Below, one piece after another: positions 860 to 33,377 of a DNA stretch of 33,616 bases; the first letter of the stretch is position 1, and every line of letters starts with the position of its first letter. The DNA lies in the IMG/VR virus record IMGVR_UViG_2778261222_000001, positions 1-33,616 of that record; one strand, given 5' to 3'. The position numbers and the translations under genes were made by a program. Below the pieces are notes generated by a model. The model was not told where the DNA came from, made no database searches, and saw nothing but the letters and a program-made list of their open reading frames with translations. The DNA comes from a virus (taxonomy: Duplodnaviria > Heunggongvirae > Uroviricota > Caudoviricetes).

Positions 860-954
860 TCGCCCAGAGGGCTGGGGGATATTTAATCATAATTGATGCA
901 AACAGACGATCGATATGATGATATCGATCGTCATAAACTATACAAAATGATTGT
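860..954 (-). promoter_or_regulatory. Putative com-mom promoter/operator region with a GATC-containing palindrome
   Basis: 95-bp intergenic region upstream of com; inverted repeat at 905-932 (gacgatcgata / tatcgatcgtc arms) carrying two GATC sites at 908-911 and 926-929. Confidence 0.4.
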
Positions 955-6478: not shown

Positions 6479-7011
6479 ACGGGCGGTGATGTATTCTCAT
6501 TGTCGCCGTCCTTATGAATGTGTTCGATGAATGATTTACCGTTGATTCTGACATCTTCAGTAAATTCACAGGGACCGACGAATTTCATTTGTTTACCGAT
6601 AATATTCAGCAATTCGTCGGCGGTGAGATTTACCGTTTTCCCTGAAACGTTTAATTGTTCTCCTGTGATTTCAATGACGCCGTTTTCCTTCAGGGTGATG
6701 TGTGATTTGCCGTCCCGGTGATAAAGCCGGACATCGCCGGGGGACAGTCCTTTCGGGCGACATCGCTTGTCCTCCACCGCGATGGCAACCAGCCCGTCAC
6801 GCCGTCCGCCAACGGCCAGCACAATGGCTTCAGAACCTTCCGGCGGAACGGAAGTAAACCCGTAGTTCTGGAAGCGTTCCACGTCGTCGTCAGTGGCATC
6901 TGCCAGCGTCTGGATTTGCAGGTTCTGCCGCTCCAGACTGTCAGACACCATGCGGACAACGGCACGGTCAACCAGCAGCCGCAGACGGCGGGCAATGGCG
7001 TTTAATCCCAT
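6475..7011 (-). CDS. Baseplate assembly protein V / spike-like
   Basis: 178 aa; position after the hub gene; ATG at 7009-7011. Confidence 0.6.
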   Translation of the reverse strand: MGLNAIARRLRLLVDRAVVRMVSDSLERQNLQIQTLADATDDDVERFQNYGFTSVPPEGSEAIVLAVGGRRDGLVAIAVEDKRCRPKGLSPGDVRLYHRDGKSHITLKENGVIEITGEQLNVSGKTVNLTADELLNIIGKQMKFVGPCEFTEDVRINGKSFIEHIHKDGDNENTSPPV

Positions 7012-15617: not shown

Positions 15618-16520
15618 TTATGCCGGGGTGGTGATGTACGGGCTGTCCACGATCTCCACATCCTTGTACCAGATGTTGGAATCGCCGCCGTTAACCAGCA
15701 TGGCGTCAATAATGAGCTTCGCGTCCGCACGGTTTTTCGGCCCCACCACAAGGGTGGTCGGGCGGATGCCCAGTGGTTCACCGTTGGTACCCTTCATGCC
15801 CCGCAGCAACTCATTGGCTTTTTTGTAGTTCTCCACCGTCAGTGCCGCACGGGAACCGACGGCGGTCTGCCAGAAGCCGAAGCCTGCATTACAGCGACCG
15901 TCCACCCCGTACAGGAATTCGTTATTCTTGAAGGTGTGCTCGCTGTTCAGATCGTCCAGGGCTTCAAACTTAAAGGCGCGTCGCGTCTGCCAGATAATGG
16001 GTTTCAGTACCTGCGACTCATCAATCAGGAACCACGGCTCACCCTTGTCTGATGCCGGGGTGCCGACAACGTTGCTGTACGTGCCGTCACCCAGCGGGTG
16101 GTCTTCATCAAAGAAGTTCTGGCCGTCAAAGCACAAAGTTTTGAATCCGGCACACAGCAGGGCGTAACACAGCTTGTCCGGGAACACGGCTGTCATACGT
16201 CCATAGCGTTCAGCAGTAATGCTGTACTGACCAATCTGGTCATCTTCAATGTGTTCGCGCTTAACGCGAATGGAACTTTCCCAGAGTTTGTTGGTGATGG
16301 TGTAACCATAACCGTCCAGCGTTGCCAGCTGACGCTCACCGACCCATTCTTTGATGTCCGGTAAATCTTTCATCCAGCCGTAGGTGTTGGAGGCTGACGA
16401 ACTCGGCACCTCAGAAGCAATGCGATTCCACTGCGGTTCGACACCACTCAGTCCACGGGTAAAGGCGGCGCTCAGGCAGGTGGTCAGTGCATGAAGGATT
16501 TCGGAATTGACTGCTCCCAT
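15618..16520 (-). CDS. Major capsid protein (Mu T-like)
   Basis: 300 aa; follows the protease/scaffold gene with a TGATG overlap. Confidence 0.8.
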   Translation of the reverse strand: MGAVNSEILHALTTCLSAAFTRGLSGVEPQWNRIASEVPSSSASNTYGWMKDLPDIKEWVGERQLATLDGYGYTITNKLWESSIRVKREHIEDDQIGQYSITAERYGRMTAVFPDKLCYALLCAGFKTLCFDGQNFFDEDHPLGDGTYSNVVGTPASDKGEPWFLIDESQVLKPIIWQTRRAFKFEALDDLNSEHTFKNNEFLYGVDGRCNAGFGFWQTAVGSRAALTVENYKKANELLRGMKGTNGEPLGIRPTTLVVGPKNRADAKLIIDAMLVNGGDSNIWYKDVEIVDSPYITTPA

Positions 16521-17482
16521 CAGTTATTCTCCTGTTTTGGTTTAGCGGCGAGGAACTCTTCCCCGGTAATACCCATGCTGCGACACATCGCCAGTTCGGC
16601 GTCGGTCAGTGTCTCCGCGGGTTTATCCTTGCCCTGGCTGGGCTTGTCGTTGTTCACCAGCGGCTGTGTGCCTTTGGTGTATTCCGCAAACTGTTTGCGG
16701 CCTTCTTCCGTGCGGCAGGTGGCAAGGAACATGTCACGGTTTGCCGGGGCCACTTTTCCGGCTTCGATGGCCGCATCCACAAGCGCCCCGGCTTCCTTCT
16801 CTTCCAGTTGCTGAAGGCGTTTTTCTGCGGTTTCGGCACGGTTCAGTGCCAGATTGTGGGTTTCCACCGGCACAAACTTCGTCAGATCAGGTGTCTGTGC
16901 GCGGTTCAGCGCCACCTGTTCGTTCTCCTGAAGTTGTTTAATGGCAGCCACGGTATCGTCCACCGTGGCGGATTCAGCCAGCCCAAGCAGGCCGGTGATT
17001 TGCACAGGTACTGTCATCGGGTTTTTCTCCGTATTCAGTGCAGGAAAATCCAGGTTAGGTTTGTTGGTCAGCCCGACGCTGGACAGGCGCGTCACCACAC
17101 CGTCTGCGTCAAAGAAAAACGCCGGGCTGTAATAGCGGTAGCGACGCTCACTCAGCATCCACCGGGCGTACTCGCTCCAGACAACACGGCCTTCAATGGT
17201 GCCGCCATCCGTCACCCGCAGTTCTTCCACCCAGCCATACGCCGGGGCTTCATCACCGCGTTGCCCTTTAATTTCGGTGGCATGTTCAATGTCCACCGGA
17301 ATTTTGATGTCGGACGAACGGGCGATCACCTCATGCGGATTGCGGTTAATCCACGTCCGTCCATCGCGCCCGGTAAACTCACCCGCAGGGACGAGCTCAA
17401 GCCATTCCGGCAGTTGAGCAGGTGTCAGCTCAGGGATGGGTTCTGGCAGGGAAAAACACAGCGCCAGCAGTTCCGGTTGCAT
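16520..17482 (-). CDS. Prohead protease / scaffold protein (Mu I-like)
   Basis: 320 aa with a coiled-coil C-terminal half; GGAG Shine-Dalgarno 7 nt upstream of the ATG at 17480-17482. Confidence 0.75.
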   Translation of the reverse strand: MQPELLALCFSLPEPIPELTPAQLPEWLELVPAGEFTGRDGRTWINRNPHEVIARSSDIKIPVDIEHATEIKGQRGDEAPAYGWVEELRVTDGGTIEGRVVWSEYARWMLSERRYRYYSPAFFFDADGVVTRLSSVGLTNKPNLDFPALNTEKNPMTVPVQITGLLGLAESATVDDTVAAIKQLQENEQVALNRAQTPDLTKFVPVETHNLALNRAETAEKRLQQLEEKEAGALVDAAIEAGKVAPANRDMFLATCRTEEGRKQFAEYTKGTQPLVNNDKPSQGKDKPAETLTDAELAMCRSMGITGEEFLAAKPKQENN

Positions 17483-17530
17483 GTCAGTCTCCGTCGTTTG
17501 GGGTTACCGACGGTCAGTATGCGGAAGGCA

Positions 17531-17556
17531 GAAAAAAAGCCGGATTTACCGGCTTC
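17531..17556 (-). terminator. Rho-independent terminator (minus strand), copy 1 of a repeated element
   Basis: On the minus strand: 7-bp stem aagccgg, loop taaat, stem ccggctt, followed by seven T; lies between the F-like gene and the protease gene. Confidence 0.6.
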
Positions 17557-17695
17557 ACTGAAAACAGGGAAATACCCCCTTCAAAACCACTTCAAAAACG
17601 CCACAGCACCTTCAAAAAAGTCAGAATGCACATTCACGCCATCAGAATAAAAAACGCGATTCTGGTGCGTTTCAGGGGGATTTACGGCGGGAGGG

Positions 17696-21556: not shown

Positions 21557-22134
21557 GCGCTAATCCCCAGAATTTCACGTTTGATGGTGTCAGCCGCACC
21601 ACCTGACAGACCGCCCGTTCTGACCAGTTCTTCGGTTTTCTCTGCCATCTCCTGCGCAAACGCATCACGGATCGCTTTCTCGCGTTTATGGCTGGTCATG
21701 GCTGCCGCTTCCAGACGCTGGGCAACCAGCGCCAGTTGCCCCAGCGCCTTTGGTGCTACAGGTTTGTCGTCTTCTGCCATCGACATGGACGTTTCAAAGG
21801 CCAGCGTTTTTACAAACTCCATCAGCAGCTTGCCGACGTCTGACGTCGGCGCGGAACCCAGCTTTGCCGCCCAGACTTCGGCCATTTCGCGGGAGGCGCG
21901 GATTTTGGCCCCGACTTTTTCCATGCGGATGGCATAGCGGTTTAAGCCCGTCCGGCTTAACTGCATCTCTTCCGGCAGGTTGTGTTCGTCAATCAGGGCG
22001 TTGATGGCTTCGCGGATTTCTTCCTGCGTGTGCCGCTTTTCCCGCAGCATCTGATGCAACTGCTCCCGGATGCTGTCCGGGAGTAAATCCACTTTGGAAA
22101 GACGGCCACGGGTGGGGCGTTGTTCATTTTCCAT
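21553..22134 (-). CDS. Terminase small subunit-like protein (Mu gp27-like)
   Basis: Basic N-terminus; likely start is the ATG at 22132-22134 with AGGAGG 6 nt upstream; directly precedes the large terminase. Confidence 0.6.
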   Translation of the reverse strand: MENEQRPTRGRLSKVDLLPDSIREQLHQMLREKRHTQEEIREAINALIDEHNLPEEMQLSRTGLNRYAIRMEKVGAKIRASREMAEVWAAKLGSAPTSDVGKLLMEFVKTLAFETSMSMAEDDKPVAPKALGQLALVAQRLEAAAMTSHKREKAIRDAFAQEMAEKTEELVRTGGLSGGAADTIKREILGISA

Positions 22135-22271
22135 GTGTGCCCTCCTGTTGCTCACTACGCTGTAAACTTTCGTATGCAGATTTCAGCGCGCCACTCTGGA
22201 TTTCCCGCCATGTCAGGTTGTGCGCCAGACGGCGGAGTTCATCACGGGACGCTTTACTTATCGGATTCTTT

Positions 22272-22571
22272 TTACGGTTCACGACGGCCCCCGTCTTCAG
22301 TTCCCGGTGTTTTCAGACCGGCGTATATTTCTTCGCGAACGGACCGGATATCCTTACCCAGCAGTTTCCACAGCCGCGCACATGCCGGTGATGAGCGCAG
22401 GGCACATTTCATGGGGGTATCCGGTGCATCCGGGTTCCAGGGCTTTCCGGTCTGTTGTTCATATGCACGGGCGATGGCGTTTTTCTCAATATCCGCGAGC
22501 ACAAGACAGTACGCCAGCTGCCGCACGACGGCCCGTTCTCCGCGACTTAACGGCTTCAGTTTTCGGGCCAT
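22272..22571 (-). CDS. Hypothetical protein
   Basis: 99 aa; ATG at 22569-22571 with GAGGGA Shine-Dalgarno. Confidence 0.45.
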   Translation of the reverse strand: MARKLKPLSRGERAVVRQLAYCLVLADIEKNAIARAYEQQTGKPWNPDAPDTPMKCALRSSPACARLWKLLGKDIRSVREEIYAGLKTPGTEDGGRREP

Positions 22572-22573
22572 GC

Positions 22574-22867
22574 TCAGTCCCTCGCACGGGGTTTTTTAAC
22601 GCCCGGAACGCTGGACAGGCCGTTTGCCACATCCTCGCCGCTGCCGGTGATTTCAGCCACGTAACAGCCGCCCACATCAGACAGACGAACCAGCCCCTGC
22701 TCGCGCAACCATGCAAGCTGGGTGCGTACCACATCACGGGATACCTTATGACCGTAAGCCTGAAGGCAGGTCTGCAACACGGATTCATTCGCGCTGTCGC
22801 CACAGTCCAGCAGGGAACGCAGCAACACCAGACGACGGTCTTCAGTGAGGATCTCTTTCATCGCCAT
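22574..22867 (-). CDS. Hypothetical protein, possible winged-helix fold
   Basis: 97 aa; TAATG overlap with the upstream gene. Confidence 0.45.
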   Translation of the reverse strand: MAMKEILTEDRRLVLLRSLLDCGDSANESVLQTCLQAYGHKVSRDVVRTQLAWLREQGLVRLSDVGGCYVAEITGSGEDVANGLSSVPGVKKPRARD

Positions 22868-23172
22868 TAATTTTTTTCCTTTAACTCGTTCTCTAATAAC
22901 AAATCACTGATGCGGGATACCTGGCGGATGGATGGCCCCAGCTCTTTGATTTCTCCCCGCAGGTTGCTGATATCCAGTTGCAGGCGGTGGAACTCATCAC
23001 GGTCGGGTAAATGGTGTACCTGGCTTTCCATAACCGACACGCGGGAACGGAGTGAATCAAACTCTTCACGTTTGACGTAGGTTTTCGCCAGAATCAACTG
23101 AAGCAGGTTTATTCCTGTCATCAGCAATGCCCACAGAATGGGCCAGTTGGCCCGGATCATTTCCCAGGACAC
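22867..23172 (-). CDS. Membrane-anchored coiled-coil protein (possible lysis accessory/spanin-like)
   Basis: N-terminal hydrophobic helix WPILWALLMTGINLLQLIL followed by a coiled coil; 101 aa. Confidence 0.45.
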   Translation of the reverse strand: MSWEMIRANWPILWALLMTGINLLQLILAKTYVKREEFDSLRSRVSVMESQVHHLPDRDEFHRLQLDISNLRGEIKELGPSIRQVSRISDLLLENELKEKN

Positions 23173-23384
23173 GTTTTCCTCCTGCGTTCCCGCATCTGTT
23201 GACAGTCAATACAGGTCACCACATCCGGCAGCGCCGCAAGGCGCTGTACCGGAATAACGTTCCCGCAGTCATTGCAGAAGCCCCGGCTGTGGGACGCTTC
23301 TTTTGTCCGCGTCTGCCAGGCTTTAACGACGCTCTGACGCTCGTTCAGAACCACTTCACTGATGCGGTCGATTTCGTCGGTCAT
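23157..23384 (-). CDS. TraR/DksA-family C4 zinc-finger protein
   Basis: CNDC-x17-CIDC spacing (CxxC-x17-CxxC) near the C-terminus; 75 aa. Confidence 0.7.
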   Translation of the reverse strand: MTDEIDRISEVVLNERQSVVKAWQTRTKEASHSRGFCNDCGNVIPVQRLAALPDVVTCIDCQQMRERRRKTCPGK

Positions 23385-23989
23385 TTCGGCCCCGCAGATA
23401 TTTTGTGACGGCTTGATTTGCTGTAACGGGCAAAGCCGTCAAGGGTTCGCACGCCGAGATAGCCCAGCGCAGGGGTAAGCAACATCAGCGTGATATCCCA
23501 GTCCGGTGACGGCATATGCAGCGTGATACCTCTGGCACCGGCAATGGCTCCGGCAATCTGGCCGCAGGAAAGCAACAGCACATAGGCCAGACTGCTGTAA
23601 CAGGACAGGCGGGCCAGCAGCGGGCGCGTCTGGCGCACATAGCTGTCCGTGGCGTTGTCACCATTGCGGATGGTTTCCTGCTGTTCATGGTGTGTGGCCT
23701 GCTGGTCAGCCAGCACCAGCTTCTGCCGTTCCACCTCCAGCTGTTGCAGCTGAACTTTCAGGGTTTCCATCTGCATCAGTTGCTCCGGTGACAGCATCAC
23801 CAGCTTTTGTTCCAGAATGCGTTGCTGTTCAGCCACCGGCAGGCTTTCCCGGACGCTTTCCACCATACCGGCCACCGAGTCAGCGGCGGCAGATGTACTG
23901 CCACCAAACCAGCGCCCGACGGAACGAATCAGCCCCGGCCCGGCTTTCAGCAGAACAGAGGCGATGCCTGAAAGGGTTAACGGATCCAT
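23381..23989 (-). CDS. Putative holin-like membrane protein
   Basis: 202 aa; hydrophobic N-terminal segment, central coiled coil, C-terminal hydrophobic helices; located in the lysis block. Confidence 0.4.
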   Translation of the reverse strand: MDPLTLSGIASVLLKAGPGLIRSVGRWFGGSTSAAADSVAGMVESVRESLPVAEQQRILEQKLVMLSPEQLMQMETLKVQLQQLEVERQKLVLADQQATHHEQQETIRNGDNATDSYVRQTRPLLARLSCYSSLAYVLLLSCGQIAGAIAGARGITLHMPSPDWDITLMLLTPALGYLGVRTLDGFARYSKSSRHKISAGPK

Positions 23990-24387
23990 GAATCCCCCTT
24001 ATGAAAACGGCGCTGATGTTTATAAAGTGCCGCGCAAAAAATACCGCCCAGCCAGAACGCCAGCTGATAAGGCTCCTTCAGATAAAGAATGCCGAATGTC
24101 AGCATGAAAAAACCAACGGCCCAGACCACCCATGACCACACGACAATTCGAAGGGAAGCGGCCCGGAAACGCCTTTTGGGTTGCAGGCGATAAGGTACGT
24201 TGCCCAGCTGGAAACTGTGAATCAGACAGAGTGTCGCGCCGTATGCCAGCACCATGACCGCAAACGCCCGCCATCCGGCAAAACAGCTCGCCAGAAAAAG
24301 TACTGCCGACAGCCCCAGAAACGACCACTGGCACAACATAAAGCGGGAGTAAATAACGCGAACAAAAAGACTATTCATTCTGTGCAT
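23977..24387 (-). CDS. Integral membrane protein (about 4 TM helices)
   Basis: Start at ATG 24385-24387 with AAGGA Shine-Dalgarno; four hydrophobic segments (the track ORF extends upstream with no obvious start). Confidence 0.5.
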   Translation of the reverse strand: MHRMNSLFVRVIYSRFMLCQWSFLGLSAVLFLASCFAGWRAFAVMVLAYGATLCLIHSFQLGNVPYRLQPKRRFRAASLRIVVWSWVVWAVGFFMLTFGILYLKEPYQLAFWLGGIFCAALYKHQRRFHKGDSWIR

Positions 24388-24598
24388 TGAGTTTTTCCTT
24401 GTACTTCTGGCACTGCCAGAAAATGTCCCGTGTATCCACGGAGTTCCAGCCACGCATGTAATAGCTGGCGTGTGTGCCGTCATGGCCGGTGTAGTCCACC
24501 GGCTTCGGGGGCGGGCCTCCGGCCATGCGGTGCAAAATCTCCTGACGCAGGCGGTCACGCCGCCCGGCTTTCAGTGAGGCATCCCAGCCTTTACCCAT
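24371..24598 (-). CDS. Hypothetical small protein downstream of the endolysin
   Basis: 75 aa; starts immediately after the lys stop. Confidence 0.4.
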   Translation of the reverse strand: MGKGWDASLKAGRRDRLRQEILHRMAGGPPPKPVDYTGHDGTHASYYMRGWNSVDTRDIFWQCQKYKEKLNAQNE

Positions 24599-24599
24599 A

Positions 24600-25196
24600 T
24601 CACCCCCGCGTGGCGGACATGATGCCCTGGGGGGTATCGATGATTTCCAGACAGGCGTCGGTCAGTTTTTCCATGCGGTTAAACCAGCCGTTCAGGTATT
24701 TACCCTGGGCGGGTTTTGACTTGATGATGTCGGCATAAAAGCGGGAACGACGGACAATGCAACGGGCCAGCAACCAGTCCGGGGTGGACAGGCTCACGGC
24801 CTTACGGGTACGCGGACCGATGATGCCGTCAGCATCCACATCAGCGGCTTCCTGCAAAATCCTGATGGCTTTTTTAACGCCATGCTGAACCGCCGCATCG
24901 AACACAAACATCGCCACGCCATCAGGCCACTGGTCACATCCGGCAGGCAGCCAGTAATCGCGCCAGTAAATCTGCGCAACCTGTTCGCGGGTCAAATCCC
25001 TGATGCGGGTATCCGGTTTGCCGTCACCGTTGACATCGGTTTTGCCGTCAATCACACCGTCGCGGCGGTCAGAAATGCCGTATTTAGTTTCGCCGCCACG
25101 GTCTGTGGGGTCATTGACATAGCCGCCTTCGATATCAGGACGCAGGATAAAATTCAGCGCATGTTCAAAGGTCGGGGAGAATTTTTGATTTTCCAT
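24600..25196 (-). CDS. Endolysin, GH108-type N-acetylmuramidase with peptidoglycan-binding domain
   Basis: N-terminal motif EGGYVNDPTDRGGETKYGI typical of glycoside hydrolase family 108; AGGTG Shine-Dalgarno upstream. Confidence 0.8.
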   Translation of the reverse strand: MENQKFSPTFEHALNFILRPDIEGGYVNDPTDRGGETKYGISDRRDGVIDGKTDVNGDGKPDTRIRDLTREQVAQIYWRDYWLPAGCDQWPDGVAMFVFDAAVQHGVKKAIRILQEAADVDADGIIGPRTRKAVSLSTPDWLLARCIVRRSRFYADIIKSKPAQGKYLNGWFNRMEKLTDACLEIIDTPQGIMSATRG

Positions 25197-25250
25197 AAAA
25201 GCACCTGTGAAGCAGATTTAAACGTGGTCTGCTTCATGGTGCCGGAGGCA

Positions 25251-25276
25251 TAAAAAAAGCCGGATTTACCGGCTTC
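25251..25276 (-). terminator. Rho-independent terminator (minus strand), copy 2 of the repeated element
   Basis: Same aaaaaaagccggatttaccggcttca sequence as at 17531-17556; hairpin plus seven T on the minus strand, between the moron and lys. Confidence 0.6.
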
Positions 25277-25297
25277 ATTGAATATCAGGTTATTGGC

Positions 25298-25795
25298 TCA
25301 GTTAACTTTACGGGCAGAACATGTAGTCTTCATTACTGAACGTTCAATTTTTATCTTCCAGCCATTTACTGTTTTTTCGACAGGATCATCTTCAGCTTGC
25401 TTTAAATTTTCAACTTGCATGAAATTCAGTGGGGCTGGGGTATCATCGTCCCATGATGTCGGGCGAACATAATCAGGGACAACAAAAGGCTCAAAAACAG
25501 TTTCACATAAAGCAGACGTCATTTGAGCGAACTCGTCGCTATCGGGGCGAACCGGTCCTGTAACATACTGCATTTTTATGTTGATTTCGTTATCTCGCAC
25601 AGACGCCTTTAAATCCTGATATACACCTAAGTTAAATCCTTTAAACTCAGCAATGGCAGCGTCACCTTTACCATACCAGTCGGTATAGTCAACGGATGTT
25701 TTTTTCTGAAAAACATCTTTGACTTTTTGCTGGAATGTATCCTCCGCTTGTACAGTAGTAACAGTTAGTAAAAGAATAAGGGGAAGATATTTCAT
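25298..25795 (-). CDS. Secreted protein of unknown function (moron)
   Basis: N-terminal signal peptide MKYLPLILLLTVTTVQA followed by ED; visibly AT-rich codon usage compared with flanking genes; ATGA overlap with the mor stop. Confidence 0.6.
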   Translation of the reverse strand: MKYLPLILLLTVTTVQAEDTFQQKVKDVFQKKTSVDYTDWYGKGDAAIAEFKGFNLGVYQDLKASVRDNEINIKMQYVTGPVRPDSDEFAQMTSALCETVFEPFVVPDYVRPTSWDDDTPAPLNFMQVENLKQAEDDPVEKTVNGWKIKIERSVMKTTCSARKVN

Positions 25796-26193
25796 TGTTC
25801 GTCCTTAAATAGTTGCATTTGATATTTTCCACGCTCCAGTCGGCGCATTCTTTTGATGGCCTGATATACCGTTTTGTATGTCACTTTGTAACGCTGCACC
25901 AGCTCCGCTACGTTTTTCCCATCAAAATCACGCCAGATGCGCATGTCTCTGATAAGATTTTCCAGTATTTTCCCTTTCGGAACATATACCTGAATCCCAC
26001 CGATATGATTGCAAATCGCCACTACCAGCTCAAGGGAGTGGGCAGGGTTAACTCCAAGCCTTATCAGCTCCTGTCGCAACAGAGCATTCAGCTCAGCCAG
26101 TAAAGATGGAAATCCCGATTTTTCCTGAACATCATCAAAATATTCAAGGATACTGTCGTCCTGATAATCACCAAATAAATCCTGCTCTTTCAT
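25792..26193 (-). CDS. mor: Mor/C-family transcriptional activator (Mor by position)
   Basis: 133 aa; C-terminal region YKTVYQAIKRMRR fits the Mor/C helix-turn-helix as I recall it; follows gemA as mor does in Mu. Confidence 0.7.
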   Translation of the reverse strand: MKEQDLFGDYQDDSILEYFDDVQEKSGFPSLLAELNALLRQELIRLGVNPAHSLELVVAICNHIGGIQVYVPKGKILENLIRDMRIWRDFDGKNVAELVQRYKVTYKTVYQAIKRMRRLERGKYQMQLFKDEQ

Positions 26194-26741
26194 AGAACTA
26201 TTCTCCCGCTGTTTCTGGCGCGGGCATACGCACTGGTCAGTGCATCATATCCGCGCAGTTCCCGCCCGGTTTCGCTCACAGGTAAAGGCATGCCATGTCG
26301 GGCAAAGGCTTCCCGGATGCAGCGCATATGCCACTGTTTGAGCGTTTCGAGCACAACCTGCAACGATTCCCCATGACACCAGGCCAGCGTGGAAACACCC
26401 TGACCACCATTACGTCTGGCCGTCAGGCGTTCAACGTATTTGTCCAGCGCGGCGTCGCTGATATCGGATACGAAACCATCAAGAAACATCTGCTGCCAGA
26501 TTTTATAAATCTTCTCGCGCGGTGTGACATGCCCCTTAAAGCGACGGCGGGGATGTTTATTCTGCTTTTTAAAACCGCGCTCTTTCATGGCATCGAGCAC
26601 TTGTTCCAGTTGTGCAACGGACAGCTCGCGGCAACTGGTTTTGCCCGTGCACTGCACCAGAAAGGCGCGGTAAGTGTCATCGTCGAGGTGCAACTCCCGG
26701 CGGGCAACATGAATTAATTTAATCAGGGATGTGCGACTCAT
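26190..26741 (-). CDS. gemA: GemA-like regulatory protein
   Basis: Position immediately upstream of mor; ATG at 26739-26741 (track ORF begins at a GTG at 26786). Confidence 0.65.
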   Translation of the reverse strand: MSRTSLIKLIHVARRELHLDDDTYRAFLVQCTGKTSCRELSVAQLEQVLDAMKERGFKKQNKHPRRRFKGHVTPREKIYKIWQQMFLDGFVSDISDAALDKYVERLTARRNGGQGVSTLAWCHGESLQVVLETLKQWHMRCIREAFARHGMPLPVSETGRELRGYDALTSAYARARNSGRIVL

Positions 26742-27108
26742 TTTGCCCCATCTCCTTAATGCAGTGTTTTTCGACCCATGCCACACGAGCAGAATTCAGG
26801 TGGCATCTGTCATGTAGGCATTCATCATGGTAGTGCACGTTATCTACATTAAATGGCAGGGATTCATCCAGCCCACTCGCGACAAAATCCGCATGTAATT
26901 GTTCTAGCGCAGCCTCGCTGTCTGCTCCGATTGATTCAAAATAGTCATAAACATTGGCGCATAATCCGACTCCCCGAATAAACCCTTCCCCTTCCGTTTC
27001 TTGCGCTCCGTTTTTTAACCACTGGTTATAGGCGACATAAAAATCATAAAGATGTTTTCTGGTGCTGGCGGATGCGGATTTAATTTCATTTTTCTCTGCG
27101 TTATTCAT
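26719..27108 (-). CDS. Hypothetical early protein with His/Cys-rich motif
   Basis: 129 aa; HYHDECLHDRCH motif suggests metal binding. Confidence 0.45.
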   Translation of the reverse strand: MNNAEKNEIKSASASTRKHLYDFYVAYNQWLKNGAQETEGEGFIRGVGLCANVYDYFESIGADSEAALEQLHADFVASGLDESLPFNVDNVHYHDECLHDRCHLNSARVAWVEKHCIKEMGQNESHIPD

Positions 27109-29012: not shown

Positions 29013-29312
29013 TTAATATTCGCTGTATACAATGCTGGATACAGCACGATTGCTTAATTCCATCTTTTGGGCAATGGCATGAATAGCCAGCCCTTCTTTA
29101 TAAAGTTCACGACACAAATATTTGTCGTGCTCACTGATTCGATATGCACACAACGATATTCCGTGCCTTCTGGCATGTGCCTGTAGGGCGGCTGGGGCAA
29201 CGTTCAGTTTTTTCGCCATTTCCTCGACGGTCATTTTCCCGACACTGGCTTCGATAAATTCCCGGTCTTCGCGTGACCAGCGTTTACGCTTACACATCAT
29301 TCCGGTCACCAC
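29013..29312 (-). CDS. Small helix-turn-helix DNA-binding protein
   Basis: 99 aa with two HTH-like segments (MTVEEMAKKLNVAPAALQAH and GLAIHAIAQKMELSNRAV). Confidence 0.45.
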   Translation of the reverse strand: MVTGMMCKRKRWSREDREFIEASVGKMTVEEMAKKLNVAPAALQAHARRHGISLCAYRISEHDKYLCRELYKEGLAIHAIAQKMELSNRAVSSIVYSEY

Positions 29313-30042: not shown

Positions 30043-30270
30043 TTAACGCCAGATAATCTGGCAACCATTAAGGCGGGCCGTCCATACGGAACGGGCAACC
30101 CCTGATTTATGCTCCATAATCCTGACAGCGTTTCTGACCAGCTCCGGTGGCGGGCAGGTAATTTCAAGCACCGGGCGGGCCACGCCCAGCCAGGATTCGT
30201 TGACGTGGCTGCCGCGCTCCTGTAACCAGCTCTTTACTTCCGTTGCCATTTTGATATTCCGTGACATCAT
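30043..30270 (-). CDS. Hypothetical small protein in the position of Mu kil
   Basis: 75 aa; begins 12 nt after the B stop. Confidence 0.4.
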
Positions 30271-30282
30271 GATTTATGCCCC

Positions 30283-31215
30283 TTACCACCAGTTCAGTAA
30301 CTTCGGGTTGCTGTAAACCTCTTTAAAAGCCGCTTTAATGTAGCCTTTGGATAACGGAACACCTTTCCCGCTGGCTGCCAGCCATGCCTGATTCAACGTA
30401 TGAGTTAATACACGTAATGCACCTGGTTTTTCCGCTATGCTCTGCATGAGTGATAATTCATCTTCACCCTCAATGCCCCAGGCTTTCGCAATTGCCACCA
30501 CATCAGCCTTTTTGGCTTTACGCAGTTGTTTTGTTCTGGCGAAACGGCTGAACAAACGCGCAAGGTCATCCGTTCCCCGATGTGTGGCTTTGGCTAATTG
30601 GCTTGGGTTACCAATCAATACCATCCCGACGCCTGTTGCATCCTGAATGGCGCGCAACTGCTCCAGCCCGTCCATGCTCAGGTGGTCAGCTTCATCCACA
30701 ATCACCAGACCGCGTGTGCCGTTCAGTTTTTTGCGAATGGCACGGGTCAGCGCGCCTTTACTCCTTTGCGGATTATCAATTCCCAGCGCGTCTGCCAGTT
30801 CCAGCAGGCACTCGGTCACTGTTGAGTGCGCAGGGGAAAGGGTCACCATCCAGGTATTAGATACACGGTTACTGTATTCACGGGCCGCAACGGTTTTACC
30901 AACACCCGGTACACCAACCAGAACGCTGATACAGCCCATAACACGCACGGTCTGAAACAGCTCGCGCAAATCACGGAGGGTTTGTGTTTCCACAAGTTGC
31001 GGTGCACCTGGTAATTCCTGGCTTTTCTGCCAGTCCTGATGCCACACCAGTAATTTGTCATGCATCCCTTCGGTATCGCCTTTGTAACGACCTTTGCGAA
31101 GTTCCGATAGCGTGGCCTCTGACACGCCCGCCTCTTTAGCAATAACACCCTGAGTTTTTACGCCGTCGGAAATCAGCGCATTAATCGTATTGAAAACATC
31201 ATTAATATCGGTCAT
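30283..31215 (-). CDS. B: Transposition protein B (AAA+ ATPase, target DNA activator)
   Basis: 310 aa; Walker A motif GVPGVGKT; N-terminal HTH; follows the transposase; GAGGAAG Shine-Dalgarno. Confidence 0.9.
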   Translation of the reverse strand: MTDINDVFNTINALISDGVKTQGVIAKEAGVSEATLSELRKGRYKGDTEGMHDKLLVWHQDWQKSQELPGAPQLVETQTLRDLRELFQTVRVMGCISVLVGVPGVGKTVAAREYSNRVSNTWMVTLSPAHSTVTECLLELADALGIDNPQRSKGALTRAIRKKLNGTRGLVIVDEADHLSMDGLEQLRAIQDATGVGMVLIGNPSQLAKATHRGTDDLARLFSRFARTKQLRKAKKADVVAIAKAWGIEGEDELSLMQSIAEKPGALRVLTHTLNQAWLAASGKGVPLSKGYIKAAFKEVYSNPKLLNWW

Positions 31216-31289: not shown

Positions 31290-33377
31290 TCAGGCCAGCG
31301 GATCATCCTGTTCCTGTATGGCTGCAAGTTTCTGCAAACCCAGCCTGAAATCGCGTTCATAATCTTCGTCGTAATCCTCCTCATAATCCTGTTGCTGGAT
31401 GGTTACCGTATTACCAACCGGGCGATAAACATTATCCAGCCAGGGTTCAGTCTGTTTGTGCTCCAGAATCTGAATGCCTTCATCCTCAGCATCACGAATT
31501 TTTTCCTCAGCGCGTTTGCGCATTCCTTTAATACGCTGCTGTTGTTTGTGATATTCAGCACTGACAGCAAAGGCTGCGCGTTTATTGCCGTTCCATATCG
31601 CCTCACAGATAAAGCTGCCGTCCTTGCGACGTACCGTAATTCGCTCGGCGTCATGAATGTCATAACTGATAAGCACTTTGCGACCGTGTTCGTCACGCAA
31701 CTCCGGCGCGTAGTAAATATTGTTCAGCCACTGAATTTCGCAGCGTCTTACCGGTCGTTCCACCATCGGGCGGAACATGTCGCGCAGCTCAAGATCACTC
31801 AGCCACTCAATTTCGGTGTCTTCTTCTGCTAGGCGTTTTTTTCTGAACTCTGCCGGGCTGTAATGCCGCCCGTTCGGTTTCATCGGCAGCTCAGAATGTG
31901 GGCGGTTGTTGTACCATTCCACGCCTTCACGAATAGCCTCAATAAGCTCCGCCCACGATGGTAGCTCGCGCATTGCAGCTTTCTGTCGGTCGTTCAGAGG
32001 CTTGTCCTGTTGCATGGCGTTAAACGCTGAACGCAGATCACGGTTAAGTACACGCAACGATTCCCGGTCAGCACCCTTGCCAAAATAGGTGCGATACCTC
32101 CTGGCTATACGCATTGGCAGCGTCCGGTTCAGGCGTTCAATAATGCCGCGCCCCTGTGGATTACCGGCAATACCTGTTGGGTGTTTAATCCCCAGGCGGG
32201 GCAGAATACCCACGACCTCTTTGTCCAGCATGTCAGCCGTTTCACCAGAACCGTTATCCGAGTAATACAGAAACGGTTTTCCGTGGTTGCGAATGCCGTG
32301 CTGTATCGCACCGGCAACGGCGAACACGTTCTCGGCAAGGTCAAGACTCCAGCCAACAACAAACCGGGTTCCACCGTCGATCACAAATGTGACTTCCGGT
32401 GAGAATGGACGCCCGTGGATCGGATGTGCACATTTCAGCTTCATACCGTGACCGTCACCAATCCAGACATAATTCACCGGCATAGCTGCCCAGTCGCGAC
32501 GGGTGAATCCTTCAAGCTGACGGTATTCACTGCCGGTAACACGGCCTTTTTGTTTCACCACTTCCGGCAATTTTTTCATGGCATAACGAACCACATCGTA
32601 AGAGGGCATCACCTCTATCATGTAGGGTTCGTCTGCATGGCGACGCTGCCATTCCGCGACAAAATCTTCGTAGGCTTCTGACATAGATCTGCCATTCGCC
32701 TGGCGATACTGCGCCAGAAATTCAGGCAGCCAGCTAATTTCTTCCGGTTTTATTTCGTCGCGTTTTCCCGGTGCCAGTAACAGCAGCCGTTCTGCGGCGT
32801 TCTGTGATTGGTTGTATTTCAGCACCCACTGATAAAGCGGGTCACGACTGATGGTGCGATTAGCTCCACGTTTTGCATTGGCGGTAGCTGTGGCCTGTTG
32901 CAGGCGTTCCGGTAGTTCACCTTTACGGGCTTTTTCGACAAGATAGTTAATGGCTTTCAGCCGCCCGAGATTACCGTCGCTTTCCAGCTTCAGTACTTCC
33001 ACCACCAGCGCAGCCCTTGCTTCAGATACCCGACGCTGATTTTCGGTCAGCGTATTCAGGCGTTCTTCCATCAGTTGTGGCGAACCGCGATATGCTTCGA
33101 TTGCCTGGACAGCATCAGGATTGCGTGTTTTTCTGACAACAGCTTTCACTTCAGAAACATCGTTCTCTTTAGCCACCAGTTGTTCCACATAGCGTTCACG
33201 CAGTGCCTTTTGTGTTATTTCCGGCAGACAATCAATGTGGTATTCAATGGCTTTTGTACCTGCGCGTTTACGTCGGAGATGTTCTGATGAAGCCAGTTTT
33301 TTTATGGCGTACCTCACACCCTGCGCGCTTCCCGGCATACCTGGTAGCCCTACGAGTTCGTTTACTGACACAAACAT
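31290..33377 (-). CDS. A: Mu-type DDE transposase A
   Basis: 695 aa; position after ner and before B; size comparable to MuA. Confidence 0.9.
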   Translation of the reverse strand: MFVSVNELVGLPGMPGSAQGVRYAIKKLASSEHLRRKRAGTKAIEYHIDCLPEITQKALRERYVEQLVAKENDVSEVKAVVRKTRNPDAVQAIEAYRGSPQLMEERLNTLTENQRRVSEARAALVVEVLKLESDGNLGRLKAINYLVEKARKGELPERLQQATATANAKRGANRTISRDPLYQWVLKYNQSQNAAERLLLLAPGKRDEIKPEEISWLPEFLAQYRQANGRSMSEAYEDFVAEWQRRHADEPYMIEVMPSYDVVRYAMKKLPEVVKQKGRVTGSEYRQLEGFTRRDWAAMPVNYVWIGDGHGMKLKCAHPIHGRPFSPEVTFVIDGGTRFVVGWSLDLAENVFAVAGAIQHGIRNHGKPFLYYSDNGSGETADMLDKEVVGILPRLGIKHPTGIAGNPQGRGIIERLNRTLPMRIARRYRTYFGKGADRESLRVLNRDLRSAFNAMQQDKPLNDRQKAAMRELPSWAELIEAIREGVEWYNNRPHSELPMKPNGRHYSPAEFRKKRLAEEDTEIEWLSDLELRDMFRPMVERPVRRCEIQWLNNIYYAPELRDEHGRKVLISYDIHDAERITVRRKDGSFICEAIWNGNKRAAFAVSAEYHKQQQRIKGMRKRAEEKIRDAEDEGIQILEHKQTEPWLDNVYRPVGNTVTIQQQDYEEDYDEDYERDFRLGLQKLAAIQEQDDPLA

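Follow-up and report, generated by a model that had tools for sequence, protein, structure and literature searches.

Bacteriophage Mu provides the textbook activator cascade of transposable phages, and promoter dissection has been confined to Mu's own promoters. In Mu the order of genes and promoters is mor, Pm, gp18, gp19, gp20, C, Plys and lys. Mor, encoded behind gemA in the last part of the early operon, acts at a single middle promoter, Pm, which drives the short middle operon gp18, gp19, gp20 and C, whereas the late system depends on C and serves operons for lysis/packaging, head, tail and com-mom. Recruitment of sigma-70 RNA polymerase by Mor at Pm has been shown experimentally. The Mu early transcript probably terminates at the hairpin overlapping Pm, which has a homologue in the phage described here. 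[quoted passage not shown] The dyad of Mu Pm occupies positions -51 to -36 and reads AGTAAAGCCGGTTAAT (PMC4390567 Table 3, PMC4287176 and the Pm cloning primer in PMC9239132); the numbering used below was reconstructed by combining these three sources. The C box is TTAT-N5-6-ATAA (PMC12867686), and the Mor and C proteins of Mu do not cross-activate each other's promoters (PMC4287176).

Other Mu-like phages have one Mor/C-family gene. In KS10, for example, the gene for the Mor homologue stands between a gp16-like gene and structural genes (PMC2628397). We found no discussion of single-activator Mu-like phages in the open literature, and no description of the late-promoter targets of single-Mor phages in the searchable literature. 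Here we analyse such a Mu-like prophage, a stretch of 33,616 nucleotides from a virus of the class Caudoviricetes (IMG/VR record IMGVR_UViG_2778261222_000001), which we refer to as the window in its entirety. From its sequence we propose that Mor alone probably activates the late operons directly, in a two-step cascade instead of the three steps of Mu.

Results

A single gene of the Mor/C family

The genes at the end of the early operon are the following.

26190..26786, minus strand: gemA (gp16) homologue, PF06252 (GemA) at E 1.4e-32; precedes mor in the early operon
25792-26193, minus strand: mor, 133 aa, with a PF08765 match; the sole Mor/C-family gene in the window

The gemA homologue has approximately 80% nucleotide identity to the gemA genes of Mu and D108 and overlaps the start of mor. 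The mor product matches the Pfam Mor profile PF08765 with an E value of 6.6e-30 (103.7 bits, cut-off 24.9, profile positions 3-107 of 107) and phrog_532, 'late transcriptional activator', with 1.3e-40. It is 63% identical to Mu Mor and 32% identical to Mu C. Since it is closer to Mor than to C, and since its gene directly follows gemA at the end of the early operon, as in Mu, the protein is, on sequence and gene position, the orthologue of Mu Mor and not of C. The residues G65, G66, Q68, Y70, P72 and G74 (Mor numbering), which belong to the linker/beta-strand region and are invariant in the Mor/C family (PMC2582627), are also invariant in an alignment of 15 sequences, among them Mu Mor, Mu C and the window protein. 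Residues D and E are abundant in the N-terminal half (e.g. DYQDDSILEYFDDVQE), which also contains the DLF motif (cf. PMC2582627, PMC12867686). The C-terminal part carries KRMRRLERGK, residues 91-118 match HTH_28, and the alignment with Mor and C spans the whole protein.

No second member of the family was found. When Mu Mor, Mu C and the window Mor were used as phmmer queries against all 645 six-frame stop-to-stop segments of at least 30 aa in the window, the known ORF was the sole match, the next best reaching E 0.41. A custom HMM built from 107 Mor/C sequences, Mu C among them, likewise gave one match in the window (both strands, at least 30 aa; E 5e-69; next E 1.6), and in a control it recovered both Mu Mor (1.4e-63) and Mu C (1.2e-43). 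Among all 133 minus-strand ORFs of at least 50 aa, Pfam-A identified one PF08765 member only. The first-pass annotation, which had recognised just one Mor/C-like gene in the window, is thus borne out by profile searches of every small six-frame ORF down to 30 aa. In each of two E. coli relatives a single protein is annotated as a member of the Mor family, and the HMM likewise finds no second. One of these two is a complete prophage, from the repressor gene through mom, so that the second Mor/C paralogue of a Mu-type three-step cascade is absent both from the window and from a complete relative.

The same layout occurs in 13 relatives, which represent ten Enterobacterales species, two E. coli prophages and Klebsiella phage Kp4866-3, and the lineage of the window is matched in 80 of 5426 complete E. 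coli genomes. A single Mor/C gene is nothing unusual: a tblastn search with Mor gave one match in every Mu-like phage record outside the Mu/D108/SfMu group (one per genome in BcepMu, KS10, phiE255, Vibrio martha 12B12 and Kp4866-3, as in the window), and among sequenced phages two Mor/C genes are found in the Mu/D108/SfMu group only.

Homologues of Mu Pm precede lys and the head protease gene

Downstream of mor the window deviates from Mu, its order being mor, a cargo ORF, a Pm-like element, lys and a gp18 homologue. A second Pm-like element lies upstream of gene I.

25298..25795, minus strand: cargo ORF, 165 aa, signal-like N-terminus; 3' end of the early operon
25228..25285, minus strand: Pm-like promoter 1 upstream of lys, a gapless homologue of Mu Pm
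25285-25280, minus strand: A/T-rich stretch of promoter 1
25279-25264, minus strand: Mor-type dyad of promoter 1, AATGA-AGCCGG-TAAAT
25276-25256, minus strand: hairpin of promoter 1, followed by a T-run
25258-25252, minus strand: T7 run of promoter 1
25241-25236, minus strand: -10 hexamer of promoter 1, CACCAT; predicted +1 near 25228
24600..25196, minus strand: lys, GH108 endolysin (PF05838 6e-25; PF09374, PG_binding_3, 2.9e-17); first gene after promoter 1
17508..17565, minus strand: Pm-like promoter 2, upstream of gene I, whose ATG is at 17482
17559-17544, minus strand: dyad of promoter 2, AGTGA-AGCCGG-TAAAT
17556-17536, minus strand: hairpin of promoter 2
17521-17516, minus strand: -10 hexamer of promoter 2, CATACT; predicted +1 near 17508
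16520..17482, minus strand: head protease/scaffold gene I, PF10123 (Mu-like_Pro) 5.6e-44; first gene after promoter 2

The start of the cargo ORF overlaps the stop codon of mor (ATGA), and no consensus promoter was found upstream of it. It has no Pfam or PHROG match, homologues were found in only 5 clusters, and an AF2 model of its product (mean pLDDT 84.5) retrieved nothing from the PDB at E <= 0.001 in Foldseek. Its GC content is approximately 0.43, compared with approximately 0.56 in the flanking late region, and in ten relatives the same slot is filled by unrelated low-GC ORFs (GC 0.35-0.40), different in each. In its foreign base composition and its variable presence among syntenic relatives the ORF resembles a moron. 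It does not occupy the place expected for C, as had been supposed, but a variable slot upstream of the Pm homologue; both gene order and the Mor/C searches confirm that C is missing from its Mu-like position. The downstream hairpin is not part of the moron, since Mu has the same hairpin without a cargo gene there.

The interval before lys had been described as containing only this secreted-protein gene and a terminator. The presumed terminator, however, overlaps the homologue of the dyad that has been mapped experimentally as the Mor-binding site in Mu. In a gapless alignment with Mu Pm, promoter 1 has 35 of 50 bases identical (-57 to -8) and 13 of 16 in the dyad, and its hairpin folds at -15.8 kcal/mol (z = -3.0). 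For promoter 2 the corresponding values are 37/50 and 14/16. The two elements agree with each other at 41 of 50 bases and form a 43-nt repeat of 91% identity, the top direct repeat of the window; the exact 15-mer GCCGGTAAATCCGGC is found at these two promoters only. Both elements share with Mu Pm a 16-bp imperfect dyad of 5-6-5 structure with the spacer AGCCGG, an overlapping hairpin, a T7 tract and an A/T-rich stretch that ends in C at -52 (PMC4390567, PMC4287176). As in Mu, a putative -10 hexamer stands 22 nt past the dyad, with no recognisable -35 element. The dyads thus match AGTAA-AGCCGG-TTAAT of Mu at an identical distance to the -10 region; the half-sites are AGTAA and TTAAT in Mu and A(A/G)TGA and TAAAT in the window. 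The hexamers agree with the -10 consensus at three (CACCAT) and four (CATACT) of six positions, and no consensus sigma-70 promoter (-35/-10) came to light when the minus strand in front of the late genes was scanned.

These features are conserved. A Pm-type site precedes lys in 13/13 relatives and gene I, annotated 'phage protease' in the relatives, in all 12 whose sequence reaches there. In the window and in the relatives the -10 hexamers, at a fixed 22-23 nt from the dyad, always have A as the second and T as the sixth base (in the relatives CAAAAT, CAATAT, CACTAT or TAAATT at the same position; upstream of lys, CAnnAT or TAAATT). At the I-sites of Klebsiella and Raoultella the 16-mer is retained although the right arm of the hairpin has decayed, which argues for a putative binding site rather than only a terminator. 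The flanks of promoter 2 are informative as well: the F-I intergenic region of the window aligns with the G-I region of Mu and with the core of the C-dependent Mu promoter PI (CCGCATACTGAC vs CCGCAAACTGAC). Compared with PI, position and flanks of the I promoter are homologous and the activator box alone differs, being of the Mor type here.

Further Mor-type sites and C boxes

A family-derived pattern, ADKGAARSCGGTWAAT, searched with at most one mismatch, has three matches in the window, all on the minus strand, where 0.04 would be expected by chance. Besides the dyads of promoters 1 and 2 it detects a candidate site within a baseplate gene.

6591..6643, minus strand: third Mor-type site (candidate), within gp45, a baseplate gene
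6643-6628, minus strand: its dyad, AGGGA-AAACGG-TAAAT, followed after 23 nt by TATTAT at 6604-6599

The relatives L017, L002 and Kp4866-3 also have the gp45-internal site; the corresponding codons of Mu gp45 do not contain it. Because the site is part of a coding sequence, constraint on the protein may account for its conservation. A dyad-like sequence at 22560-22545 was dismissed as a chance occurrence; it has three mismatches, falls in the first codons of an ORF and lacks a -10 hexamer at the right distance. Whereas the Mu genome carries one Pm-type site only, the window has two or three such copies directly before late operons (lys, I and possibly baseplate). The late system of Mu has C and TTAT-N5-6-ATAA boxes; in the window there is no C gene, and no such box was found on the minus strand ahead of any late gene, lys and I included. 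The sole match in the window falls in the early region, at 30107 of the plus strand (0.36 expected by chance). The wiring thus differs from that of Mu, as suspected in the first reading, with no second Mor/C paralogue and with Mor-type sites before lys and the protease gene.

Genes of the lys operon and other candidate activators

All features recognised in the first-pass annotation (mor, the secreted-protein ORF, the terminator hairpin, lys, the zinc finger and the small ORFs) are present at their positions on the minus strand, and some of them had been suggested as substitutes for C.

24371..24598, minus strand: gp18 (E18) homologue, 68% identical to Mu gp18 (E 4e-37)
23157..23384, minus strand: TraR/DksA-type zinc finger, 75 aa, PF01258 7.5e-11; phrog_54 'DksA-like zinc-finger protein'
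22574-22867, minus strand: gp26 homologue, 61% identical
22272-22571, minus strand: small ORF of 99 aa
29013-29312: early helix-turn-helix ORF, HTH_Tnp_1 at E 1e-5

The gp18 gene, the first of the middle operon in Mu, is placed after lys in the window. A membrane ORF at 23977-24387 corresponds to gp19 in position only, as its sequence gives no support for homology. The TraR-like protein has a C4 zinc finger and an acidic N-terminus; its gene occurs in 13/13 relatives and is absent from Mu. Because Mu gp24, considered as a counterpart, shows no similarity to it, the gene is specific to the lineage of the window. Proteins of the TraR/DksA family bind RNA polymerase through its secondary channel and not specific DNA, and we know of no member that confers promoter specificity through DNA binding. 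The window member moreover lies inside the lys operon that we assign to promoter 1, and for this reason it would be at most a modulator of transcription and not the primary late switch. The 99-aa ORF is found in 12/13 relatives and is absent from Mu, and its homologues are all close. As a hidden activator it was rejected, since a profile-profile comparison with Mor/C gave a probability of 0.1%; its AF2 model (pLDDT 58) was too low for a fold search. The suggestion that a late activator is encoded among the TraR-like finger and the ORFs at 22272..22867 therefore loses ground, the candidates being a member of an RNA polymerase-binding family, an ORF unrelated to Mor/C and a homologue of gp26, which Mu possesses as well as C. 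Given the lineage-wide TraR-like gene and 99-aa ORF, an auxiliary factor may nevertheless act alongside Mor.

Discussion

The late targets of Mor can be named in the window because their homology to Mu Pm is recognisable. In the proposed switch, Mor would be an early-operon product, encoded right behind gemA, and would bind the 16-bp imperfect dyad A(A/G)TGA-AGCCGG-TAAAT, centred approximately 43.5 bp upstream of the start site. At these promoters, with a -10 hexamer and without a -35 element, it would recruit the host sigma-70 RNA polymerase, by analogy with Mu Mor at Pm. Transcription from promoter 1 would then cover the genes for lysis, terminase, portal and F together with the TraR-like gene and the homologues of gp25-27; promoter 2 would serve the head and probably also the tail genes, and a third promoter may reside within gp45. 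The hairpin and T-run that overlap elements 1 and 2 probably stop transcription arriving from upstream, which would make each late operon dependent on Mor. A C-type activator would be superfluous, and the window encodes none. Since Mor and C of Mu do not cross-activate, a phage with Mor only should need Mor-type boxes at its late promoters, and such boxes are seen here. Mor binding is predicted by homology, because the dyads differ from that of Mu at 2-3 of 16 positions and the recognition helix differs as well; together with activation at the elements, termination at the hairpins and the extents of the transcripts, we infer it from sequence. The first reading had posed an alternative between one Mor/C protein that drives all late promoters and an activator encoded elsewhere. 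The former fits the Pm homologues before lys and the protease gene.

Direct activation by Mor alone leaves at least one late-type promoter unexplained, that of the com-mom genes, whose products were identified by Pfam.

878..932, minus strand: com-mom promoter region, with a GATC-rich palindrome (~932-905) and a C-box-like ATTAT-GATTAA-ATATC (893-878)

An alignment with Mu Pmom retains the GATC cluster and ATTATG...AATA(T/A)CC, and the C site of Mu, ATTAT-GCCCCA-ATAAC, aligns with the window box, which reads TTAT-N6-ATAT and is one mismatch from the C-box pattern. Among the late-type promoters of the window only this one keeps a C-box-like sequence as in Mu. A Mor site was sought here and rejected, as the right half-site TAAAT alone is present and there is no Mor-type dyad. 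Control may consequently be mixed, with Mor serving the lys and I operons and a further activator serving com-mom certainly and the tail genes possibly; candidates for this activator are a phage protein that has escaped recognition, a host factor and C from a co-resident Mu-type phage. The existence of a separate tail promoter, PP, in Mu and the lack of a hairpin-type element before the tail genes of the window point in the same direction. On the other hand, the half-sites of the com-mom box are not kept in the close relative STEC719 (TTGT and ATAC), and the minus strand of the window has no perfect C box. From I to the tail-fibre genes the spacing is tight and no strong minus-strand terminator intervenes, so that read-through from the I promoter could suffice for the tail genes, for which the gp45-internal site is a further candidate source of Mor-dependent transcription. 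We thus regard mixed control as possible, but on balance doubtful.

Another alternative holds that the repeated elements are intrinsic terminators or insulators only and that the late promoters lie elsewhere, under a factor outside the Mor/C family such as the TraR-like protein, the 99-aa protein or the product of the ORF at 29013-29312. Indeed, the two elements are the best-scoring minus-strand terminators in the window, and in two relatives compensatory changes preserve the hairpin (GGCGG/CCGCC and AACCGG/CCGGTT). However, the homology to Mu Pm exceeds the hairpin, extending up to approximately -57 and down to the -10 hexamer at its fixed distance, and some I-sites have kept the 16-mer after loss of the hairpin. 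The factors fare no better. The breadth of the TraR-like gene and the 99-aa ORF among the relatives and their absence from Mu would suit a lineage-specific activator, but both genes lie downstream of the first element and therefore cannot start late transcription; in addition, the TraR/DksA family is generally known to contact polymerase and not specific DNA, and the 99-aa protein is unrelated to Mor/C, its model being of low confidence. The ORF at 29013-29312, despite its HTH_Tnp_1 match, is missing from 5/13 relatives. Taken together, we hold this explanation to be quite improbable. That the window is a defective remnant, in which C was deleted upon insertion of the cargo gene, is scarcely credible: a foreign low-GC gene does sit near the place of C in Mu and C is lacking, but ten other species, two E. 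coli prophages and the deposited genome of Klebsiella phage Kp4866-3 show the same C-less arrangement with intact structural genes and differing cargo genes, and the late promoters bear Mor-type boxes rather than orphaned C boxes.

For direct late activation by Mor, the evolutionary polarity may be considered as well. A cassette of terminator and Mor box could be ancestral and portable in enterobacterial Mu-like phages, with the Mu cascade as the derived state, although we consider this broader scenario unlikely. If it were true, C would be a paralogue of mor that originated within the Mu/D108/SfMu lineage, and PI and the other late boxes would have changed from the Mor type to the C type with their flanks homologous throughout. 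The Mor-only lineage would use the conserved TraR-like polymerase-binding factor for the fine timing provided by C, and the C-like box at com-mom would represent a remnant of exchange with Mu-type phages or else the target of an unknown factor.

As one Mor/C gene is present in most Mu-like phages, the finding will not surprise specialists, and most relatives of Mu probably also run a simpler early-to-late switch. For annotation it follows that a hairpin after mor or after a cargo gene should not be labelled as a terminator only. The equivalent of PI would be a clear example of rewiring through exchange of an activator box in an otherwise homologous promoter. For a lineage that is common in E. 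coli and other Enterobacterales, our analysis predicts that Mor alone would turn on the lysis and head genes.

Layout of the prophage and its single Mor/C-family gene

A Mu-like transposable prophage makes up the window. Read along the minus strand, starting at the right end, its genes are in the order ner-like gene, A, B, gam, gemA, mor, a 165-aa ORF, lys, several small genes, terminase, portal, F, protease I, T, tail and baseplate genes, tail fibres, com and mom. DNA identity to Mu, D108 and SfMu (~80-89%) is restricted to gemA and the com-mom coding region; the remainder is of a different lineage. Matches to this lineage came from 80 of the 5426 complete genomes of E. coli, 38 of them with most of the query and with identity of up to 97%. 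All features listed in the first-pass annotation were recovered at their positions. The genes relevant here are:

31290-33377, minus strand: transposase A
30283-31215, minus strand: B
26190-26786, minus strand: gemA
25792-26193, minus strand: mor (133 aa, Pfam Mor)
25298-25795, minus strand: 165-aa cargo ORF
24600-25196, minus strand: lys
16520-17482, minus strand: protease I, followed by the major head protein gene T

The 133-aa protein matches Pfam Mor with an E value of 6.6e-30. [quoted passage not shown] Phmmer, queried with the window Mor as well as Mu Mor and Mu C, matched the known ORF alone, and no second member was found in these segments by an HMM of 107 family members including Mu C, which recovers both Mor and C in Mu as a positive control. 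Likewise, Pfam-A gave a single PF08765 match among all 133 minus-strand ORFs of at least 50 aa. Thus, the small ORFs of the window yielded no second Mor/C protein. The complete prophage of E. coli STEC719, which belongs to the same lineage and extends from the repressor gene to mom, also has one Mor-family gene according to both annotation and HMM.

Judged by its sequence and gene position, the 133-aa protein is a Mor orthologue. It shares 63% identity with Mu Mor and 32% with Mu C, and its gene lies directly 3' of gemA, the same placement as in Mu. The family-invariant linker residues G65, G66, Q68, Y70, P72 and G74, which have been implicated in DNA binding (PMC2582627), are retained, as is the N-terminal DLF that is required for activity of Mu Mor (PMC12867686). 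The C-terminus (25792-25810, minus strand) reads QMQLF, and most homologues likewise end in Q-x-x-L-F, resembling QPDLF, the reported C-terminal clamp-binding motif of Mu C; Mu Mor ends in QPSLL.

Predicted Mor-type promoter elements upstream of lys and I

To number the Mu sequence we anchored it on published Pm positions, i.e. GTAAAC at -57 to -52 of this Mor-dependent middle promoter (Ma and Howe, Table 3, PMC4390567) and the Mor dyad at -51 to -36 (Mo and Howe, PMC4287176). These anchors identify AGTAA-AGCCGG-TTAAT as the Mor site of Mu and TATCCT as the -10 hexamer; the primer "Mu Pm nt9163" begins at the same sequence (PMC9239132). The Mor element of Mu consists of two 5-bp inverted repeats that flank a G/C-rich hexamer, with its centre at -43.5. 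When the sequence 3' of the 165-aa ORF (GAAGCCGGTAAATCCGGCTTTTTTTATGCC) is compared with that immediately 3' of Mu mor (AAAGCCGGTTAATCCGGCTTTTTTTACGTC), a gapless alignment extends from about -57 to the -10 hexamer, with 35 of 50 bases shared. The dyad before lys, AATGA-AGCCGG-TAAAT, is identical to the Mu Mor site at 13 of 16 positions, and CACCAT occupies the position of TATCCT. The first-pass annotation had regarded this stretch as a terminator. The hairpin is real (-15.8 kcal/mol, z = -3.0), and it overlaps the right half of the dyad that corresponds to the experimentally mapped Mu Mor-binding site.

The window has two copies of the exact 15-mer GCCGGTAAATCCGGC, each on the minus strand, and the top direct repeat of the entire window is a 43-nt pair (25240-25282/17520-17562, 91% identity). 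The spacer that separates F from the protease gene I holds the second Pm-like element. Its dyad, AGTGA-AGCCGG-TAAAT, is identical to that of Mu at 14 of 16 positions, with CATACT at the -10 position. Mu has the C-dependent promoter PI at this place. The F-I spacer of the window aligns to the G-I spacer of Mu: the upstream DNA is homologous, including the stretch around the annotated Mu gyrase site, and so is the downstream core (CCGCATACTGAC in the window, CCGCAAACTGAC in Mu). The activator box inside the spacer, however, is of the Mor type in the window and of the C type in Mu, and the boxes are not homologous. In the 7.5-36.7 kb of the Mu genome scanned there is a single Pm-type site. The F-I spacer of the window (~17585-17660, minus strand) also has repeated TTTTTGAAG motifs (GGTGCTGTGGCGTTTTTGAAGTGGTTTTGAAGG) aligned with the region around the central gyrase cut site annotated in Mu, and the prophage may possess a strong gyrase site at this position.

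Scanning one genome per species gave ten usable related loci (Pluralibacter, Raoultella, Klebsiella, Kluyvera, Serratia, Brenneria). They share the order gemA, mor, short gap, GH108 lys, gp18 homologue, TraR, DUF2730, terminase, portal, F, I, T, and each has one Mor/C match when 10 kb on each side are searched. The deposited genome of Klebsiella phage Kp4866-3 shows this layout as well. A Pm-like element lies directly before lys in all ten loci and before I in nine, the sequence of the tenth (L013) stopping short of the I region. Dyad variation is limited to A(A/G/T)(T/G)GA-A(G/A)(C/G)CGG-T(A/T)AAT. The -10 hexamers (CAAAAT, CAATAT, CACAAT, CACTAT, TAAATT, CATACT, CACACT, GACACT) share an A as the second and a T as the sixth base and are 22-23 nt away from the dyad. 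Compensatory changes that keep the hairpin in two I-sites support a terminator role, while retention of the 16-mer in three I-sites whose hairpin lacks its right arm supports an independent role as binding site.

From 21 sites (the two of the window plus the lys and I sites of the ten loci) we built the pattern ADKGAARSCGGTWAAT. Allowing at most one mismatch, it matches the window at three places, always on the minus strand, versus 0.04 expected by chance. The additional match is:

6643-6628 (region 6591-6643), minus strand: candidate third Mor-type site AGGGAAAACGGTAAAT, inside the baseplate gene gp45, with TATTAT 23 nt later

Kp4866-3 and two of the E. coli relatives also have this site, whereas the corresponding codons of Mu gp45 lack it. 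The site may act as a promoter within the tail operon or reflect the protein sequence alone; since it lies in coding DNA, where protein constraint could explain the conservation, we regard it as a candidate only.

The interval between mor and lys

It had been proposed that a moron, the 165-aa ORF, takes the expected place of C. This does not hold, as the ORF lies upstream of the Pm-like element, while in Mu the genes that follow Pm are gp18, gp19, gp20, C and, immediately after C, lys. In the window, lys directly follows the Pm-like element, and a gp18 homologue (68% identical) comes next. We group the 165-aa ORF with the early operon because it overlaps the stop codon of mor and precedes the Pm-like element. 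In the ten loci the corresponding slot holds different ORFs with a GC content of 0.35-0.40, some encoding proteins of ~165-170 aa whose N-termini are signal-like, the others membrane proteins of ~103-111 aa; on this comparison, the mor-to-Pm interval is a variable cargo site. The 165-aa protein has five homologue clusters and a confident AF2 model (pLDDT 84.5), for which no PDB match at E <=0.001 was found.

Other candidates for a late activator

Some small genes downstream of lys had been named as candidates for the late activator, as an alternative to a single Mor/C protein. We evaluated them with 13 Mor-only relatives, i.e. the ten loci, two E. coli prophages and Kp4866-3. The TraR-like gene (23157-23384, minus strand) is present in all 13 and absent from Mu. 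Members of this family act at the secondary channel of RNA polymerase and are not known to bind DNA. As the gene is located downstream of the first Mor-type promoter, its product could have a modulating effect on late transcription but cannot be what initiates it. A neighbouring gene for a 202-aa membrane protein (23381-23989, minus strand) has the same distribution (13/13 relatives, not Mu). The ORF at 22272-22571 (minus strand, 99 aa, phrog_8988) occurs in 12 of the 13 relatives and not in Mu; no relation to Mor/C was found for its product, and the structure model is unreliable. A 52-aa ORF after it (22124-22282, minus strand) matches the N-terminal part of the phrog_8988 family, so that the pair resembles the outcome of a partial tandem duplication. 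The ORF at 22574-22867 encodes a gp26 homologue (61% identical), and is no substitute for C because Mu carries gp26 besides C. An early protein of 99 aa (29013-29312, minus strand) with two helix-turn-helix-like segments (HTH_Tnp_1, E 1e-5) is encoded in eight of the 13 relatives and missing from five.

A proposed Mor-driven late programme

A two-step cascade is the model with the best support. In this model, early transcription would yield Mor, which would bind the dyads centred at about -43.5 and recruit sigma-70 RNA polymerase to promoters lacking a -35 element, thereby switching on the lys and I operons directly. The overlapping hairpins would stop upstream transcription and so render each operon Mor-dependent. 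Recruitment of polymerase by Mor has been shown at Mu Pm; for the window we infer it, like Mor binding, activation, hairpin termination and the transcript extents, by homology. Mu Mor and C do not activate each other's promoters (PMC4287176). Therefore a Mor-only phage would need Mor-type late boxes, which fits the boxes observed.

The boxes before lys and I fit the proposal that one Mor/C protein serves the late promoters; at com-mom no Mor-type dyad was found. The com-mom promoter (878-932, minus strand) has a GATC-rich palindrome like the Dam/OxyR control region of Mu. Its box, ATTAT-GATTAA-ATATC, aligns with the Mu C site ATTAT-GCCCCA-ATAAC in a prophage without a C gene; a perfect TTAT-N5-6-ATAA box was not found on the minus strand of the window. 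In STEC719 the half-sites are TTGT and ATAC, and owing to this difference the box may not be under selection. Expression of mom may result from read-through of the tail operon, from Mor acting at a diverged site, or from another factor.

In the open literature to which we had limited access, we found no paper on these targets or on the box exchange for this lineage. The present analysis adds likely targets of Mor and shows that the PI-equivalent promoter has undergone a box exchange. When phage records were searched by tblastn with the window Mor, two matches (Mor and C) were obtained only for Mu, D108, SfMu, PhiR68_1 and the Yersinia vB_YpM phages. Every other Mu-like phage, including those of Vibrio, Burkholderia (BcepMu, phiE255), Pseudomonas, Shewanella, Pasteurella and Klebsiella, gave one match, and KS10 has a single Mor homologue immediately before its structural genes (PMC2628397). 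With one match in the other Mu-like phages, a single activator is the common state and Mu the exception.
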